Shown here one piece after another: positions 66 through 55,375 of a stretch of DNA of 64,000 nt (its first letter is position 1; each line of letters starts with the position of its first letter). The DNA comes from Hormiphora californensis (taxonomy: Eukaryota > Animalia > Ctenophora). The DNA lies in the NCBI GenBank assembly GCA_020137815.1, contig CM035356.1, positions 5,642,001-5,706,000 on the forward strand. Reading direction: 5' to 3'. The notes under the pieces were generated by a model. The model did no database searches and was not told where the DNA came from. It was given only the letters and a program-made list of their open reading frames with translations. The position numbers were made by a program, and so were the translations under genes.

Positions 66-24904
<24,839 letters not shown>

Positions 24905-27860: not shown

Positions 27861-28481
27861 GACAGTCTGACACCGGTTGGCTGTGATTTATATGACCAAC
27901 GCGAAACTTAGCTTAAATAAAAACGAATCTTTCGGGAAAGGGTAATAATTTTAGTACATAGGTTGCATATCTCAAAAGACGGTTAATCAGGCGGCTCGAT
28001 TTTTTTTGACTAAACGAGTCCCAAATTGAACTTAGTACTTTTAATTACATTTGATGGCCGTTCCTTATTTGAAGATTTCAAAAGCTAACTCAATAACCAT
28101 TCCAATTTCAGAGACGGTTATATGTAACGGAAATTTGTAACCGCCTTCGTGGGAGCTTACATTGCATTTTGGCTTTGTGCCATCATTCTCAGCACACTAA
28201 AAATGTTTGTGAAGATGAAGCACTAGTATAATCTGGAAATTTGATGAAGGATCATCATACTTCCGATTTAAATTTACGATATATTGACTAACTGTCGTTC
28301 CCGACTAGACGATATATGTCATTTAAGTAACTTGAGAAATCAAAATTGATCACTTGCCCGGGGCAAATTGCCCAGTAAGTTATTGAGGTAAAAGATGTTG
28401 AATATATGCCAGGAAATTAAAACAAGTTAGTTAACCAGCTATAAACCGTTAAGCTACTACAGGTGTGTACAGTTATCTACA

Positions 28482-28536
<55 letters not shown>

Positions 28537-31134
28537 CCAAAATAAAGGAAGAGAGAAAATGGAAAAAAAGGGGAAAAGGGGGCAAGAGAGGAGGAGGTTG
28601 GGAAAAAGGGGGGAAAAAGGCGATTAAAAACGAGGAAAAAGGGTAAAAAAGCACCATGGCCCCAACGAAAAGGGGGGAAAAGGGGAGAGGGGCACTCGAT
28701 TTCTATTTTGAGGGGAGGGGCCCCCCGGAGAACCGGTTGGCCCTTTTGGTTTAAACCGGCGAGAAGGGGTTTCCAAAAAGTAGGAGGATGCGGGCGCTCG
28801 CGTTTGGGGGGAAGACCTTTTAAACCCACCGAGGGGGGTTTTAACCCGGGGAAAAGAGACGCTATTTTCAAAAGGAGGAAAAGCCATTGACCGGGAAAGA
28901 GGGGGCCCCGGGGGAAAAACCCAAAAGGAGGGGAAAAAACAGGGAGAGAGGGGGGGCGGGGAAAGGGGGGAGAAAAAAGGTTTTTTGGGGAAAAAAAAAA
29001 GGGGGAAAATAGGGGAAAGAAAAAGGGGGGGGGAAAAAACCCCCGGGGGGCGGGGGGCCCCCGGGGGGGGGGGAAAAAAGGGGGGGGGGGGGGCCCCCCC
29101 CCGGGGAGAAAACCCCCCCGGGGGGAAGGGTTGGTTGGAAAAAGCCCGGGGACCCCGAAGGGGGGCCCGGGGGTTGGGGGAAAAGGGGAGAGAAAGGAAA
29201 AGAGGGTTAACCCGGGCCCGGGAAAGAAGTAGACAACGGCCAAACCAGCGATTTCTGTTTGGAAAAAGGGAGGGGACCCTGCTGAGAAGATGAACCAGGA
29301 GAAAGACACGAGAAAGAAACGAAAGAAAACCCGACGGGAATACAGGGAAAAAATGAAAGGTAGAGAAGGCGGAGAAAAGGAAGAGAGAGAAAACGAGAGA
29401 GAGAGAAGGATTTTGGGGAGAGAGAGAAGGAGGAATTTTTCCCTTTTGGGCCTTTTCCCCCCCCCCGGGTCAAAAGGGCCCCCGGGAAAAAAGGGGCCGT
29501 TGGAAAAGGGAAAGGGAGCCCTGGGAAGCATTGTTTGGCAAAGTTAAATTTTGGAAGGATAAGTTTCAGAGTCCCATAATATTTATAATAACTAATCTAA
29601 GTAATAGAAAAAAATTTGGGGGTCCAAACACCTTTTGGATCAAGAAAAGAGAAAGGCAAAATTTGTTTAACCAATCAAACAAGACAACAAATGTATGCCC
29701 GGAAAAAGGAAATTAATTACCCCCTGAAAGGGATTTCGAGATATTGCATCCCCGATTTAACAAAATGAATATGGTTTTAAAATTTAAAAAAATTATAAAC
29801 TTGTCCAAATTTCCCTTATACCTTAAATTCTATTCGTTATTTCCGTAAAACCCTTTTCAAAAAACCCAAAAAAATTCGATTCCATGAAACCGGAACTGCA
29901 GAGACCCCCCACACGTGCCATGACAAATGAATGGAGAAGAATAAACCTGAATATAATGGTACTTTCTGGGAATTACGGCTTGCTGCTGGGAGCTTCGTTC
30001 AATATAATAACTCTAGTGGATATATAGTAAAACCGAGGAAAATACAGGTGTTAACGGACTGTAAATGCGGTGAAGACGAATAGTTGTCGAGAACTAGACG
30101 ACTGGTAATTTAGTCAGCACATGTTGTAAACATGTCCCCACGTACACAGATCTGTAGCTGTGTGTAGCACCTTTAACACATACCATGTGTGTCTAATGAT
30201 AAGGTGAGAGAAAAAGGAAAAAATATGACTAGACTAATTATTAGGAACAACTTCAAGTGAAAAACAAAACGATATAGGAACGGATTTTCCGAAAGTTTGA
30301 CTTTTGAGACCTGATATAATTTCTCTCATCCTATGGCATTCCAAAAATACCCATGATTTGACACAATTATGAGTATATGGCAAGGGAAGACAATGGTCAA
30401 ATTATGTTTAAATTAGATTTGAATGAACACAGGCAATACAAATCGGCTTAAAGAATATAAAACACATGGCGAAGAAAACAGATATATATGCGTGGACATC
30501 ATACAGATCATATTATGCAGTATAGAATATAGAGGCACACAAAAGCGGGAGTTGTCGAGCACTGATCTTTAGTTAGTGCCAACAACAACCCACAACAAAC
30601 AAAACTTAACACACAATAAACAAACCAACTTATTCTCAGGAAGGAAGATGCCAGGAAGAACGTGAGACGTTTGCAACGCCAGCTACTTTCAAGCTCAAGA
30701 CATCGAAAGAGGTAATAATCAAAATATCATGGTCACGTCAAATTATAAAGTTAATCAGATTATCATATTGAAGGTCACTTGAGTTCGTTAGCCAGACTAT
30801 CGTCTTATTTGGAGTCCGTGAGTACCATTACCATCACGTTATGTGGCACCAATTAGTTGTGCACATTACCATCACATCTTTCAAATTAGTTGTACGCATT
30901 ATCATCACATCGTTCAAATTAGTTGTACGCATTACCATCACATCGTTCAAATTAGTTGTACACATTATCATCACACCGTTCAAATTAGTTGTACACATTA
31001 TCATCACACCGTTCAAATTAGTTGTACACATTATCATCACATCCCTTCTTTTCATCTTCCTCCTCTCCCTTTAGCTTACTGATATACCTCGCCTCAGCAC
31101 TCACCTCCTTCCTCTCTCCTCCAAGACTATAATT

Positions 31135-33699
31135 CTAGTATGCCTCCCCTTCTTCCCCTTCTTCTTCTTCTTCCTCATCATTTTCCTCACCACCTTCATC
31201 ACCACCCCTTCCAGCGCCATCTTTTGGTCCTCCAACTCCTCGTCCAACTTCTATTCCTAGATATTCCTCATATAAATGCCCCTCATCCTCCTCCTCCTCT
31301 TCACTAACCAACATCTCCCCCTCACTCACCAACATCTCCTGGTCACTGCCCCCTGTTATATCGTTGCCATAGAGACGGTTAGTGATCACCGGCCCGGACA
31401 TTGGTGGTATAACCAGTGGCGGGATCCCCTCGTATCGCTGTGCAGGATGTGGGGCTCTGCGTGCCCTTCTGTACCAGAGTGCCGCACCACCTGCCATTCC
31501 AATCACAACAATCACAACAATCCCAACAATTATACCACCAAGTGTACCATTGGGAACACACCCGATAACCGGTATGGTGACACCTCCTTCACAGGATGCT
31601 GCCGGGGTATCATCCTCAACTCTCTTAATCTCACCGTCACCTTCACCATTATCACCATCTTCATCATCACCAACATCACCATCATCACCATCTTCACCAT
31701 CTTCAGCACTTTTTTGTTGCGGTGGAGGAATGTAACACGGCATATCTGGTGTGCACTCCACACACAGCCCTCTCTCTCCATTATACACCTCATCCACTTC
31801 CACGCAGCCCTCAAGACAATCTAAACTAATGTGCAGTGAGAACGGATCCTTGCTCACTCGGGTTGGGGTGTCAGTCGAGTTGTAGAGGTGACATGTGGTG
31901 TCAGTTAGTACCACTCGGGTGCAGTTACCATTCATAATGCACTCGTCCAAACACTCTGAGGGGAGTGTCACTCCATACAAAACTTCCCCCTCCTCCCCCA
32001 CCTCTCGTCCTTCCTCATAACATGGATCCTCGTAAAAGCACTCCTGTCCGCCGAGATCAGATACCATCTCCCGTTCACACTCCAAACACTCAATAGCCCC
32101 AGGGTTCTCACCAGTACGTCCCAACGGGGCACATGACACACTCTCCCAGAGTAGTGGTTGTAAAACTCTCCTGCGTCACATTGTGTGCATGTGGTGGTGC
32201 AGTTCCGCGTTTGGCTATCCTCCCCCACACAGGTATCCCCGTAGCAGTACGGTTCCGTGCACTCACGAACCCGGCTTGATTCACCCGAAATCACCATGAC
32301 TTCATCTTGGAAACACTGACACTCACTCCAATCACTCCACGGCAACCACCTCCCGTGAAGGGTAGTACAGCACTCATCGTGACAGGACTTTGGCTCAACT
32401 CCAGCACCATCACAGAGCTCACCATAACATGTTGGGGCTGGGGCCGTACAATTCCGATCCCGAATACGGTACCCCCGCCCAATAGTGTGGTCACACTTAC
32501 AATCATGCCAATCGCTCCACCCTGTCCAACCACCGTGAACCGTCTTGCAACAATCGTCATCACAGGACTTCTCCTCTCGATCCGTTCCCGTACAGTTGGC
32601 CCCATAACAGGACGGTTCGGGGGAATTGCACGACCGTATCCGTTCCTGTATTCCAGTTCCGTCACCGTGGTTACAGGTACACTCGCTCCATTCTCCCCAC
32701 TGGCTCCAAAGTCCATCTATGGTCATGCAACATTGATCATCGCACCCATTCTTTTCATCACTATCCCCGAAGCAGGCTGCTCCAAAACACGACGGCGGTG
32801 GATTTGAGCACGTCCTATTCCGGTACCGCTGCCCCGTTCCCACATCATGGTTGCACACACACGCCCCAAACTCACTCCAAGCCGCCCACGCACCCGGTAT
32901 ACTCACACAACAATCCTCATCGCACTCGACCCCCGACTCTGAGCTGGGACCATCACACTCACGTCCGTAGCAGTGAGGTGATGGATTCGTACACTCCCGA
33001 GATCTGGTCCTAACTCCCGTGCCGTCAGCGTGGTTGCACACACAATGCCAGGCGTTCCAGTCAGTCCAGCCTCCGTTGACAGTCTGGCAGCATTGATCGT
33101 CACAGTTCCCGTAGCTGACGTATTCTCCTGGACAGGTGCTACCGTGGCAGTCTGGGGCTGGGCTCGTGCAACTACGAACCCGGGACTTGGATCCTGGGGT
33201 AGGGGAGAGGGAAGGGGTTTTAGAGTAGTTTAGAGGATTTTGGAGCTAATTGTTTTGATGTGGGGTAGATGGAACATTGGAATGGATTATGGCTATCATG
33301 ACTTGTTTATCAAATATCTGATATGGCCTACTATATACTACTACTATAAACATCAAATTTACCTGTTCCAGTGGTGTATGTGCACGAACACGAACCCCAA
33401 GCACCCCAACCGCTCCACGCTCCGTGAACTGTCAGGCAACAATCATCATCACATGACACATAGATAGTATTAGATCCTCCACATTGAGCACCTCCATTTG
33501 AAGGGTACGGATTGTTACATGACCTAGATTTCCACCATGTTCCCGTTCCAGCTTCGTGGTTACAGGAACAAGATGACCAACTAGTCCAACCGCCCCAGCC
33601 ACCGTTAACCGCTCGACGACGACGACGACGACGACGCCAGCCGCTTGAAGGCGTGGCAAGAAGGAGAAAGATCACCAAAACGAAGAAAATATTTTTCAT
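31135..33699 (-). CDS. Type I membrane protein: signal peptide, poly-Arg, 7 thrombospondin type-1 repeats, Cys-rich ephrin-receptor-like (GCC2/GCC3) repeat, PAN/apple-like module, acidic linker, TM, acidic Tyr-containing tail; apparent frameshifts near 32110-32150
   Basis: Exon 1 33699-33363 (phase 1, GTAAAT donor), exon 2 33193-31135. Seven WxxWxxW..C..R.R.C..P.P...G..C.G repeats. CxxCPVGTY..GAIECLEC is restored by removing two single extra bases. ECLDECIMNGNCTRVVL...CHLY; TM GGIIVGIVVIVVIGMAGGAALWY followed by RRARR. Confidence 0.85.
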
Positions 33700-36226: not shown

Positions 36227-36566
36227 AAGAGAAGAGAAGAGAAGAGAAAAGACAAGAGCAGGAGCAAGCAATAAAGAGATAGAGAGAGAGAGAGAGAGGA
36301 GTGAGAGAGATACGAGGAGAGGAGAGAGCTAAAAGAAGAGAGTAGGGGCCCAAGAAAAGAGCGCGAAGAAAAGAGAGAAGATAATCGAGAGAGGAAAATA
36401 GCTAGATTTGCCTTAAAGGAAGTTCTTCTAGATCCATCTCCTCTCGAAACCTTAACTCATAAAAATNNNNNNNNNNNNNNNNNNNNNNNNNNNNNNNNNN
36501 NNNNNNNNNNNNNNNNNNNNNNNNNNNNNNNNNNNNNNNNNNNNNNNNNNNNNNNNNNNNNNNNNN

Positions 36567-39983: not shown

Positions 39984-40890
39984 TGAGAGCGAGAGAGCAA
40001 TTAGAGGCAGGTATTATACGAGGTGATTCCTTGCAGAACGGAAATTAGAAGTCCAAAAGATCACCCACTACCCAGTAGTGACCATAGAAAGCTTGTGAGA
40101 AAGAGAGAGAGAGGGTGAGAGTGAGAAAGAGAGAGAGAGTGAGAGAGAGAGAGAGATGGCGAGAAATAATCTATTAAATTGGATAGGGAGAGTAGGAGAA
40201 TGCTAATCCAACATGCCAATGTGGTGTTAGTGATTGGAGAAAAACCTACGAGCTGCAAGGGCGTGATCAATGTAACAGAAAGATCAAGAGAAGTAAAAAG
40301 AGAGATAAGAATAAAGTAGGTTGTGCATCATCAGTCAAGGAAATGTCAATTTGAAGAATAATCCAACTAGGATTTACTGAGCTGCCTTTAGTAGTGGGCG
40401 CCCATTTTCACCAGAAATTATGGAACGAATCTATGCAATTGTCGTAAAACCGGTTGAAAGATAACCGAGACACTCTCGCCAAATGTCATAGCTATTTACA
40501 AGATATGGTACGACATTCAAGAAACATCTATGTCTCTATAGCCAAAAAACCGTCCAAGAAAGTATGATCACTCACCACAGTAACACTGCCTTTAACATAC
40601 AAGTGAAACATATTATATTTTGTTTTTCCTAAAAAGTTACGTTCTCTTTTGTAGCTTAGTTTGTTGAGCTTAGTAAAGAGATAAATCAACTCTATTTGAT
40701 TTATCTCTTTGCTAAGCTCAAGATAGCATTTCCTTATTTTGCTCCTTTTTTCTCTGCATCTCTCTATCTGCATCTCTGCTGTATCTCTCTATCTCCATCT
40801 CTCCTGCATCTCTCTATCTATCTTTTCATTCTCCAATACTGCTTGTAATAAGTATAGCGGTAACCACAATTTACACCAAGTAAGCCAAGA

Positions 40891-42968
40891 ACAATTAATA
40901 TGACGTGATCAACTGCTATAGCCCAACTGTTCATTCTGAGAATTCTGATACAAAGATATTATTTGCCGTACTGCTATATGAGGTAACTCCAACCCCCCAG
41001 TTTCATCTCCTTGTTTAACATGGGAGTTACCAAGGGAATCCACTGAGTTCGATTAATCTAGGCACATACCCACAGTACTATTCGAATTGGCATATCTTTA
41101 TATCAGGAATCTCGGATAGCAACAATCCTTGTGTTTTATTGCTATCTGAACAGATTAGGCGTATAGACAGGGCTCTTATTATCAGCAGTACTCACGTATC
41201 AATGGTAATGTATTAATTGCACTGAACTGCTGTAGACATCACCCACTCACTTCATACACACACAACACCCACACACATGACCAAGCCTGTACGACAGGTT
41301 ATTGATCACCGGCTGTATTACAGCACGAGAGAGCCGTCACTAGTATCGTGCAGTGATCCGAAGATCATGATAACAATTAATATGACGTGATCAACTGCTA
41401 TAGCCCAACTGTTCATTCTGAGAATTCTGATACAAAGATATTATTTGCCGTACTGCTATATGAGGTAACTCCAACCCCCCAGTTTCATCTCCTTGTTTAA
41501 CATGGGAGTTACCAAGGGAATCCACTGAGTTCGATTAATCTAGGCACATACCCACAGTACTATTCGAATTGGCATATCTTTATATCAGGAATCTCGGATA
41601 GCAACAATCCTTGTGTTTTATTGCTATCTGAACAGATTAGGCGTATAGACAGGGCTCTTATTATCAGCAGTACTCACGTATCAATGGTAATGTATTAATT
41701 GCACTGAACTGCTGTAGACATCACCCACTCACTTCATACACACACAACACCCACACACATGACCAAGCCTGTACGACAGGTTATTGATCACCGGCTGTAT
41801 TACAGCACGAGAGAGCCGTCACTAGTATCGTGCAGTGATCCGAAGATCATGATAACAATTAATATGACGTGATCTCTCGTGCTGTAATACAGCCGGTGAT
41901 CAATAACCTGTCGTACAGGCTTGGTCATGTGTGTGGGTGTTGTGTGTGTATGAAGTGAGTGGGTGATGTCTACAGCAGTTCAGTGCAATTAATACATTAC
42001 CATTGATACGTGAGTACTGCTGATAATAAGAGCCCTGTCTATACGCCTAATCTGTTCAGATAGCAATAAAACACAAGGATTGTTGCTATCCGAGATTCCT
42101 GATATAAAGATATGCCAATTCGAATAGTACTGTGGGTATGTGCCTAGATTAATCGAACTCAGTGGATTCCCTTGGTAACTCCCATGTTAAACAAGGAGAT
42201 GAAACTGGGGGGTTGGAGTTACCTCATATAGCAGTACGGCAAATAATATCTTTGTATCAGAATTCTCAGAATGAACAGTTGGGCTATAGCAGTTGATCAC
42301 GTCATATTAATTGTTATCATGATCTTCGGATCACTGCACGATACTAGTGACGGCTCTCTCGTGCTGTAATACAGCCGGTGATCAATAACCTGTCGTACAG
42401 GCTTGGTCATGTGTGTGGGTGTTGTGTGTGTATGAAGTGAGTGGGTGATGTCTACAGCAGTTCAGTGCAATTAATACATTACCATTGATACGTGAGTACT
42501 GCTGATAATAAGAGCCCTGTCTATACGCCTAATCTGTTCAGATAGCAATAAAACACAAGGATTGTTGCTATCCGAGATTCCTGATATAAAGATATGCCAA
42601 TTCGAATAGTACTGTGGGTATGTGCCTAGATTAATCGAACTCAGTGGATTCCCTTGGTAACTCCCATGTTAAACAAGGAGATGAAACTGGGGGGTTGGAG
42701 TTACCTCATATAGCAGTACGGCAAATAATATCTTTGTATCAGAATTCTCAGAATGAACAGTTGGGCTATAGCAGTTGATCACGTCATATTAATTGTTATC
42801 ATGATCTTCGGATCACTGCACGATACTAGTGACGGCTCTCTCGTGCTGTAATACAGCCGGTGATCAATAACCTGTCGTACAGGCTTGGTCATGTGTGTGG
42901 GTGTTGTGTGTGTATGAAGTGAGTGGGTGATGTCTACAGCAGTTCAGTGCAATTAATACATTACCATT
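40891..42968. mobile_element. Concatemer of a 482-bp structured non-coding unit (about 2.04 direct + 2.27 inverted copies) with a 12-bp TSD; putative retro-integrated circular RNA
   Basis: Period 482 (unit starts 40891, 41373, 41855; inverted landmarks 41879, 42361, 42843). Inversion junction at 41873-41874. TAAGCCAAGAAC at 40881-40892 and 42968-42979. Extensive internal self-complementarity; no ORF of 60 aa or more. Confidence 0.8.
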
Positions 42969-43216
42969 AAGCCAAGAACGGGTCACTCGTTTCTCTCTCT
43001 ATATCCTCTCCCCTTCTATCTATGTAAGATATCAACCCAGGAAATGGTAGTACATGGTACTCTTCAAGCCGTGATTTATTTTTGAACACAGAGGTAGAGA
43101 ACAAGCACTGTTCTTTTAAAGCCGATAAAGAAATACTGCTTTATTTATTTGGGTCCACACTCCACAGTGAGTCCACAATGTGTCTATAATGTGTTCTTTG
43201 AACACTGTTAATATCG

Positions 43217-43446: not shown

Positions 43447-43891
43447 ATTGGGACAGATCTACCCTTTGAGTTTTGACAAGCGGTTACCCCCGAGCAGCCC
43501 GGTAAATCGTGGTCACCGGTCTTACTAAAATATCATACCCCTGAGCAGTCCGGTAAATCGCGGTCCGACCATATTTGTATAGTCAGTTATCTGTATTTTG
43601 TCACTAGCAGCTCCTCGTGCTTGTAGCGAGACTTTTACACGCTCACTTGTGCACTACTGGATCAACTGCGGTACAGTGGTACATCCGGGTTGGGGGTATA
43701 AATCTATGCGACTTTTACTTAGATAACAGATCAAAGCTCAACCGCTGTTCAGTGATGATCTAGCCGACTATAAACTGGTACTTGAATAGTTCTGCAATGT
43801 GTTGTCCCTATTCAATTCAGTGTTCTGCTATGTTTTGCCCCATTCAATTCAGTGTTACCCAATTAGTTATAACTCAATACTATATCCCAGA

Positions 43892-44188
43892 ATGAAGGTA
43901 TTCCTTGTTGCCCTGATCGCCCTCGTGGCCATGACCGCTGCCCGCCCCCATCTGGCCCTCTTCGAGCACGGACACTTCAGGGGAGGCCGCCACAACATCC
44001 ATGCACCTCAGTCATGGGTTGGAGGATTCAACGATAAGGCTTCCAGCGCCCATGCTATTCGCGGTAACTGGGACTGCTTCGAGCACGGACACTTCAGAGG
44101 CCGACGCCTGAGAATGCCCCAGGGTTCCCGCAGGCCTGGCATGCCCGGTGGATGGAACGACGTTATCTCCTCTTGCCGTCCCTTCTAA
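43892..44188 (+). CDS. Secreted single-domain beta/gamma-crystallin (98 aa), intronless CDS
   Basis: Signal peptide MKVFLVALIALVAMTAA, then two tandem halves (LFEHGHFRG..FNDKASS and CFEHGHFRG..WNDVISS) matching Greek-key F-x6-G and N-D-x-x-S-S motifs. AG acceptor 1 nt before the ATG; AATAAA at 44294. Confidence 0.9.
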   Translation: MKVFLVALIALVAMTAARPHLALFEHGHFRGGRHNIHAPQSWVGGFNDKASSAHAIRGNWDCFEHGHFRGRRLRMPQGSRRPGMPGGWNDVISSCRPF

Positions 44189-53900: not shown

Positions 53901-55375
53901 GCCACGTTCGAATCGTGGTTCGAAACGGTGCGTCTTATGGCATGTCCTGCTGCTAATTAAACGGTTCGTAACGAACCGATACGTGATCCCCATGGGGCTA
54001 TTGAATCACAAGTTTACCTAACGTTAAAATTTCGATTCGATGGGGATCACGTTTCGGTTCGTTCCGAACCGTCTAATTAGCAGCAGGACATGCGATAAGA
54101 TGTACCGTTTCGAACCACGATTCGGACGTGGCGGGTATAATTCCTTAGCAAAATTTTCAAAAAAATTTTTGGGGGAAAAATACTGCCACTAAATCGGGGT
54201 GCCACTAAATCGGGGGCCACTTAATCGGGGTCCGACTGTATAGGGCAAAACACAACTAAAAAGGGGGCTAGATAACTAGAATTATATAAAGCTGCAGAAT
54301 TATATGAAGCTGCACAGATTCAGATAGTACAGTCGAACCCCGATTTAACGGCCCCCGATTTAACGGCACTCCAATTTGACGGACTCCCTTTCCCCCGAGG
54401 ATGCCGTTAAATCGGTGTCCGACTGTACTGTTCCCACGAACATTATGTACTATGTACCCTATAACTACCAGCAAAGACACTAGGACCTCAGTAACAGCTG
54501 CTGCAGAGTGGTGGAGATAGGGACAGAGACTAGACAGGGACAGATAGGGACAGAGAGGGAGAACGAGGGAAAACAGGGAGAGTGAGAGACAGATGGAGAG
54601 ACAGGGGGACTGGGAGAGACAGAGGAAGAGAGACAGAGAAAGAGAGCTAGGCAGAGAGACAGACAGCTGTCTGTTTTTGCTGATAAACACATCGCATTCT
54701 CTCTTTCTCTCTGTCGACAGAGACAGAGAGACAGACAGACAGAGAGAATGAATGCGATGTGTTTATCAGCAAAAACATAAGGTGCATTCAGATCACATTA
54801 GACAGGTCATTGGGAAGAGAACCCCGACATAATGTGGTGTCGATATATTGCATTTCGGGGCATTCATAAGTCATTTAAAGCTGTTTTATGTAGTTTTATG
54901 TAGTTTCCTGTTTCATCAGTACTAAACTGATTAATCTGTCTACTATTCAGTAATTATGGCATTTCAATATAGGTATGAGGACCTAGATACGGCGTCGGTT
55001 CACATTTTCAACAAAGTCGGTCTACCACCGCAGTACGAGACCTTCCCAAGACCATCACGAAACAGCTCAACGGTCAAAAGAGCAGTAAGTAACACTGAAC
55101 TATCTCTGTCTCAGTTTTCTTTTTCAGTTTTCTAACTCTGAACTTTCTCTCTCTCCCTCCATCTCTGCATTCGTTTTTAGATTTCAGTTCTCCTCTCTCT
55201 CTAAGTCTATCGCTTCATTCCTCTCGAAAGTCTGAAACGAGATAAGAGAAGAAAGAGCGAGGCAGTAGAGACAAGAAAGAAAGAAGATATAACTCCCTAA
55301 TTATCGAGATATCTAGCTCTATCGCTCTCTATCTCTCTCTCTATCTATCTCTCTCTCTATAGCTATATATATCTA

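Follow-up and report, generated by a model that had tools for sequence, protein, structure and literature searches.

A very abundant, protein-free 482-nt repeat of a ctenophore that may spread like an animal retrozyme by way of a folded RNA

The animal non-LTR retrozymes, as described in the relevant sections of Cervera and de la Pena 2020 (PMC7229834) and bioRxiv 10.64898/2026.07.22.740005, are tandem, non-coding units of a few hundred bases with a G+C content below 50% and a target-site duplication (TSD) of more than 4 bp. They are present in high copy number, have a self-paired fold and form short multimers, and they are proposed to be mobilised by Penelope-like elements. The retrozyme model, as given in the part of PMC7761336 that treats it, has multimeric cDNA copied from circular templates. 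The retrozymes of bioRxiv 10.64898/2026.07.22.740005 were found, according to the portion that describes their discovery, by requiring a hammerhead, and cleavage was seen in one of the nine elements tested. Penelope-like elements typically insert in tandem and inverted arrangement, and one group of them, the Naiads, occurs without canonical hammerheads in the ctenophores Beroe and Mnemiopsis (excerpts of PMC8557442). The 5' inversions of LINE-1 are attributed to twin priming, a model for which, in the wording of the extract of PMC10760644 used here, experimental validation is lacking. The W-elements of Schistosoma mansoni are satellite-like and dispersed, and hammerheads have been reported for four of their families and not for most (PMC8490949, sections on these families).

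The window, a 64,000-nt stretch of Hormiphora californensis DNA, contains an insertion of about 2.08 kb built from a tandem, non-coding repeat unit of 482 nt (40892-41373, G+C about 0.42). The first-pass annotation had the length of the unit right and set its end one base short, at 41372. The insertion holds 2.04 units followed by 2.27 units in reverse complement, that is, about four copies in two opposed arrays, with 0 mismatches to the unit over both arms. Its parts are the following.

40881-40892, plus strand: left TSD TAAGCCAAGAAC, 11-12 bp, whose final 3 bases double as unit sequence (microhomology)
40890-41874, minus strand: left arm, 985 nt, 2.04 units; the sense of the putative RNA is minus here
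41873-41874, no strand: inversion junction, an overlap of 2 nt
41873-42968, plus strand: right arm, 1096 nt, 2.27 units, reverse complement of the left arm, with its outer end at unit position 41201
42968-42979, plus strand: right TSD, the second copy of the 12-mer TAAGCCAAGAAC

The unit shares 3 bases with the left TSD and 1 base with the right TSD. No poly(A) was found at the insertion, and an LTR arrangement is absent from its sequence. The two outer ends lie at unit positions 40890 and 41201. As they thus differ and neither is the inverted copy of the other, the insertion is not a terminal-inverted-repeat transposon and does not fit a DNA transposon of the Foldback/MITE kind.

With its non-coding tandem unit, low G+C, TSD well beyond 4 bp, high copy number, self-paired fold and short multimers, the repeat resembles the animal retrozymes. 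It exceeds the range of 150-450 bp given for them in the text available from PMC7229834 and lies within the 51-972 bp given in that of bioRxiv 10.64898/2026.07.22.740005. Opposed arms are not described in the portions of these two sources that were at hand, and the word 'inverted' has 0 occurrences in that of PMC7229834. Unlike the retrozymes, the unit carries no type I hammerhead, and its circular RNA is putative. Since it fails this defining test, it is not classed as a non-LTR retrozyme, however much it may work like one. The insertion combines tandem copies with an adjacent inverted copy, the mark of a Penelope-like element or a non-autonomous derivative of one; it is like the Naiads in these partial tandems and in having no canonical hammerhead, and unlike them, as far as the excerpts of PMC8557442 describe them, in its clear TSD and in a unit without an open reading frame (ORF) for a reverse transcriptase or GIY-YIG nuclease. 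It shares with the LINE-1 inversions of PMC10760644 (passages on twin priming) the TSD, the inverted arm and microhomology at the junction and the internal priming site; it differs from them in the missing poly(A) and in a template that would be made of a small non-coding unit, either multimeric or circular. The W-elements are a looser parallel, a likeness by description only: one copy has a possible TSD, while concatemer inversion and a circular template are not described in the parts of PMC8490949 concerned.

The unit does not code for a protein, the longest Met-started ORF on the unit circle being 37 codons, and no reverse-transcriptase family was matched by any of the 64 window ORFs scanned, a selection taken in part from 94 listed ones. 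Protein-coding sequence is present around it. About 820 bp to the right of the insertion lies a single-exon ORF of 129 aa (43799-44188, plus strand), which has a beta/gamma-crystallin domain and begins with a hydrophobic N-terminus. A rhodopsin-family GPCR runs across two overlapping frames at 7711-8815 (plus strand), from a sequence error or a pseudogene, and a protein with thrombospondin type 1 repeats occupies two long overlapping frames at 31135-33245 (minus strand); the second frame matches PAN weakly and probably contains a membrane segment. One protein of the window has 63% identity to a Mnemiopsis leidyi protein, which alone among its 10 hits bears a species name and points to a ctenophore host.

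The unit or a part of it was found in 20 of the 24 sequencing runs listed. Six of the 20 are DNA runs that come from three samples of organism A, and the others are marine metagenomes. It is a very high-copy genomic family: the contig depth summed over the unit is about 50,000-870,000 in runs X4 and X5 vs 129-383 in unique flank bins, figures that are not copy numbers and give an order only, about 1000-fold unit over flank. At least 99% identity is shown by 621 of the 883 family contigs in X4; 262 of 883 there and 287 of 1076 in X5 are less than 99% alike. As most family contigs are this similar, identical genomic arrays may exist. Among the variants is an internally deleted unit, seen in X4 and X5 as a 221-nt replacement at 41044-41266, and a unit in X5 that lacks 41190-41221, a 32-nt deletion of a hairpin tip by which the basal stem is kept. 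An AUCCUU variant forms the majority in X4 and about 1% in X5; in a possible pseudoknot it would pair with the loop of the branch hairpin at 41115-41146. In other samples, loose ends lie at many unit positions (among 15 of 305 rows), and these scattered ends, together with the differing outer ends of the insertion, mean that the family has no fixed termini.

Contigs were compared with the left flank plus one unit in 4 of the 24 runs. A contig of X5 (record 15) agrees with the left flank as far as 40892, where the left TSD ends, and then runs on for 139 non-unit letters. This sample thus appears to be without the insertion at 40892, as at an empty site, judging from the left-flank side, which is the side compared, and it is probable that the insertion is present in some animals and absent in others. 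It is very improbable that the inverted concatemer is an artefact of assembly or long reads around a collapsed repeat. The window has a gap of 100 N (36467-36566) and a stretch of G/C runs resembling low-quality sequence (28473-29543), and a contig spanning the insertion was not seen in the 4 runs compared, but the flanks of the two sides differ and the TSD is precise, an independent contig departs from the window at this TSD, and run X1 contains 98% of the sampled words. The repeat family is real irrespective of this reading. Assembly polishing could also have erased differences between the copies.

The first-pass annotation proposed that the unit folds into a closed, branched RNA rod with a second domain, selected as RNA on the minus strand. 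The fold is indeed better than that of shuffled sequences, with circular z of -3.3 (plus) and -5.05 (minus), each with 0 of 60 shuffles as good, and linear z of -4.3 and -5.3, respectively. In the circular fold of the minus strand 68% of the bases are paired. The signal is confined to the rod, a region that was picked after the fold had been seen; shuffles fold about as well as the second domain does (z -1.3 plus, -0.4 minus). The following features can be distinguished along the unit.

40913-41170 (also delimited as 40911-41172), minus strand: rod domain, a long and imperfectly paired hairpin; z is -7.5 for the minus strand and -4.75 for the plus strand
41115-41146, minus strand: branch hairpin on the rod, 11 bp including one U.G on the minus strand, 8+2 bp on the plus strand
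41183-41232, no strand: hairpin whose basal stem has 7 bp and whose tip, at about 41196-41218, is variable
41233-41277, no strand: CA-rich tract, unpaired on the plus strand; UG-rich on the minus strand, with weak pairing via G.U
41354-41367, minus strand: cUUCGg tetraloop hairpin with a 5-bp stem, within the 39-nt gap 41333-41371

All the complementary stretches named in the annotation are present in the sequence, and three of the helices, 40916-40933 with 41147-41166, 40938-40967 with 41089-41113 and the hairpin 41115-41146, pair at p>0.5 in the circular ensembles of both strands. The pairing of 40982-40990 with 41023-41031 is recovered on the plus strand (p 0.82), and the minus strand takes another register. 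The stretches 40892-40900 and 41211-41219 are complementary at 9/9 positions, yet they do not pair at p>0.5 in either RNA ensemble. In the second domain CCTG-tacga-CAGG (41285-41299) pairs at p>0.5 on both strands; CACTG/CAGTG and TGCTGTA/TACAGCA, as partnered in the annotation, do so in neither ensemble. The closure of this domain across the unit junction, to which the annotation drew attention, carries no information, because position 40892 is set by the edge of the insertion and a tandem unit closes wherever its start is placed. An 18-nt stretch at 38521-38538 matches the variable hairpin tip at 94% (E 0.18), probably by chance.

The genome to which the window belongs is rich in palindromes. 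Among 76 background windows of the same length, z reaches -7.5 or lower in 6 of 152 strand-values and -4.75 or lower in 10 of 152; the 6 lowest all come from 3 windows that fold strongly on both strands. The minimum in a separate set of 24 background windows is -5.7. The windows at about 301-562, 9901-10162 and 53901-54162 have z from -10 to -19 on both strands and are likely MITE-like palindromes. A near-perfect hairpin with arms of 26 bp and a loop of 6 nt lies at 40664-40721, 160 bp left of the insertion, and two similar blocks (9169-10720 and 20205-21711) consist of arrays of 11-nt period in opposite orientation around an AG/TC-rich middle and are foldback-like with internal tandem repeats.

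With equally good palindromes so common in the window (3 of 76 at z <= -7.5), the unit could be a DNA-level satellite that arose from a decayed, MITE-like palindrome and was moved as rolling-circle DNA, as extrachromosomal circles or through repair synthesis; its RNA fold would then be a by-product. This origin agrees with folds calculated with DNA parameters, which are equally significant on both strands (z -5.0 plus, -4.4 minus), and with the lack of significance in domain 2; the complement of the UUCG loop on the plus strand would presumably be a C-GAA-G DNA mini-hairpin, which also counts for it. It is nonetheless unlikely: the 11-12 bp TSD and the arms running inward from the target ends suit target-primed synthesis, the outer ends are not mutual inverted copies, and a rod-like 3:0 pattern of wobble pairs was seen in 0 of the 76 background windows, only 1 of which has three such loops.

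The minus strand is probably the RNA, to judge by the cUUCGg hairpin, the better fold of the rod and the geometry of the arms. The sequence GAUC-UUCG-GAUC is present on the minus strand at 41355-41366 as had been noted, and a cUUCGg loop on a 5-bp stem was obtained in 0 of 3000 minus-strand shuffles, in 1 of 3000 plus-strand shuffles and at 0 sites across 123,600 nt of background; relaxed to cUNCGg on a 4-bp stem, the motif was obtained in 8 of 3000 shuffles. The other argument of the annotation, that stem mismatches are A.C on the plus and U.G on the minus strand, holds at 4:0 for the 1x1 loops of folds computed without G.U pairs (40924/41157, 40951/41100, 41123/41138 and 41281/41305), a count with a one-sided chance of 1 in 16, but comes to 4:4 in a strand-neutral alignment of the rod arms. 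The G.U argument for the minus polarity is therefore weak. G.U pairs make up 8 of 129 pairs in the plus fold and 16 of 146 in the minus fold, and ensemble diversity is 65 on the plus vs 104 on the minus strand, the plus fold thus being the better defined. A difference between strands as large as that of the rod occurs in 7 of 76 background windows, and the strand asymmetry of the fold is modest. Taken together, the polarity proposed earlier is moderately supported by the tetraloop, rod and geometry, against which stand the near-equal z of the DNA-parameter folds and the neutral 4:4 count.

The geometric part of this argument was that twin priming predicts a minus-strand template, and it depends on both arms having been primed at the ends of the target. 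Inward synthesis from both ends gives DNA of plus sense (left-arm orientation) in both arms, so the template would be of minus sense. Opposite-strand joints recur in other samples. In our reading, inversions of the minus-template class are found in the window, in X16 record 3 and at the loose ends X5 41366 and X4 41284; X15 record 1 is of the opposite class and one joint of X4 is unclassifiable. Selection of the structure as RNA, which the annotation had inferred, finds no support in the substitutions: none of the 10 listed is two-sided, and 5 of the 10 lie in one hairpin tip. At 40953, a firmly paired site, the pair survives only on the plus strand; the substitution at 41281 turns the U.G of the minus strand into U-A; at 41196, 41205 and 41211 a weakly predicted pair survives only on the minus strand. 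The other substitutions lie at weakly paired or unpaired sites.

Known ribozymes were sought in several ways. Rfam searches at E<=10 on 2401, 281 and 341 bases returned no ribozyme family. The type I hammerhead elements that define a non-LTR retrozyme (CUGANGA, GAAA and UH in each unit) were not found together, CUGANGA being on neither strand of the unit and GAAA occurring a single time overall, and a hammerhead descriptor with one core mismatch allowed gave 0 matches. Descriptors built on motif words found no HDV-like, twister or pistol core; words of other small ribozymes gave three isolated one-mismatch matches on the minus strand, without partner elements. The consensus cores of the HDV-like, twister, twister sister and TS-like, pistol, hatchet and hairpin classes are likewise not found in the unit, nor are the TS-like loop words given in the part of PMC11620745 from which they were taken. 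A hammerhead-like scaffold on the minus strand (41232-41183) was rejected, having a non-canonical core and appearing in 116 of 1500 shuffles and at 40 background sites; the right arm stops 12 nt before its notional cut site, an observation given no weight. A match to EBV sisRNA-1 in Rfam (18 bits vs a gathering score of 58) was also rejected and is due to the composition of the CA tract. For an array of structured RNA genes or a tRNA-derived SINE there was no Rfam or tRNA match, and the Pol III A and B box patterns are absent. The idea that the unit contains an unrecognised self-cleaving or ligating ribozyme thus received no positive support from the Rfam, descriptor and motif-word scans. It is correspondingly doubtful, to a greater degree than a DNA-level origin, that a ribozyme of an undescribed class cuts and closes a circular-RNA retroelement of ctenophores and that the locus captures two reverse transcriptases as they travelled around a single RNA circle, each having started at one end of the target break.

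The unit was present in six RNA-labelled runs, all environmental and none of organism A, with word shares of 0.14-0.40. One DNA run that holds the unit (share 0.56) shares its sample with two RNA runs, and these contained 0.00 of the words of the unit. Two seawater RNA runs gave 2 and 3 short contigs at a depth of 2-8, which may include DNA and show neither strand nor level. Given its size, rod-like fold on both strands, lack of ORFs and presence in these marine RNA-labelled runs, the unit could be imagined as a viroid-like circle of the animal that replicates as RNA and has been copied repeatedly into the genome. This is highly unlikely, as the DNA depth is huge and near-identical copies occur in three samples of the same organism, whereas RNA depth is a trace only, no ribozyme was found on either strand and viral contigs gave no match beyond one of 21 nt (0, 0 and 1 matches, the last by chance). 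There were 0 matches to the unit in prokaryote genomes. Homologues were sought in metagenome contigs through a 16-nt pattern, and none extends among at least 119 loci, the best extensions among the matches listed being 22-25 nt and one weak 47-nt match at 79%; the pattern is too short for this to be evidence of absence.

The TSD, opposed arms, microhomologies, identical copies, variable ends and probable presence and absence between animals suggest target-primed reverse transcription from both ends of the target. Insertion by way of RNA, from a minus-strand template that was either a circle or linear, is likely. Our preferred, tentative reading is that the unit is a very abundant protein-free ctenophore repeat that may spread like an animal retrozyme through a folded, likely circular minus-strand RNA, without a known ribozyme. 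Genomic tandem copies would be transcribed in minus sense, and unit-length RNA would be excised and circularised by a nuclease of the host or of an element, or by an unrecognised ribozyme. An endonuclease and reverse transcriptase acting in trans, most likely of a Penelope-like element, would make staggered nicks 11-12 bp apart. Both target 3' ends would then prime on the RNA, each copying slightly more than two rounds, and the two cDNAs would be fused at the 2-nt microhomology into the opposed concatemer. Two enzymes going slightly over two rounds each on one circle would give arms of similar length and perfect identity. Penelope-like elements are the likeliest helpers by analogy, because of their tandem and inverted insertions and their occurrence in ctenophores without canonical hammerheads (PMC8557442, in the sections cited above). 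Against this retrozyme-like reading stand the missing ribozyme and the trace depth of RNA.

A circular template is also opposed by the 39 nt (41333-41371) that separate the end of the right-arm copy from the start of the left-arm copy, which fit twin priming on a linear multimer; on a circle, so small a gap would arise by chance in about 16% of cases. A homogeneous satellite array could have given a linear read-through minus-strand RNA, 4.4 units long or more, that entered the target by ordinary twin priming; no circle or ribozyme would be required, and the fold would only stall the enzyme or stabilise the RNA. The first cDNA would have stalled at 41332, the 39-nt cUUCGg module would have been skipped, and the second would have been primed just past it. 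The skipped 39 nt are exactly the cUUCGg hairpin and a neighbour hairpin, and the microhomology, which amounts to 3 nt where the left, internal priming took place and to 2 nt where the arms join, is as in the twin-priming model of the excerpt of PMC10760644; no ribozyme was found, and no abundant RNA in the runs examined. This course of events is possible, if somewhat doubtful. It requires a source array of more than 4 identical units, it is at odds with the absence of poly(A), it leaves the rod and the cUUCGg loop of the unit unexplained, and the similar lengths of the arms (985 and 1096 nt) are those to be expected of two enzymes working together on one circle.

A search of the open-access literature, with subscription papers and repeat databases outside its scope, found no description of such a ctenophore element. 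Since retrozymes have been found by searching for hammerheads, repeats that act like them without a ribozyme would have been missed by that route of discovery. If cleavage of the RNA is proven, the unit would represent a new ribozyme class; a circle formed without cleavage would point to a ribozyme-independent route. The insertion also keeps the priming geometry of the integration step proposed for retrozymes.
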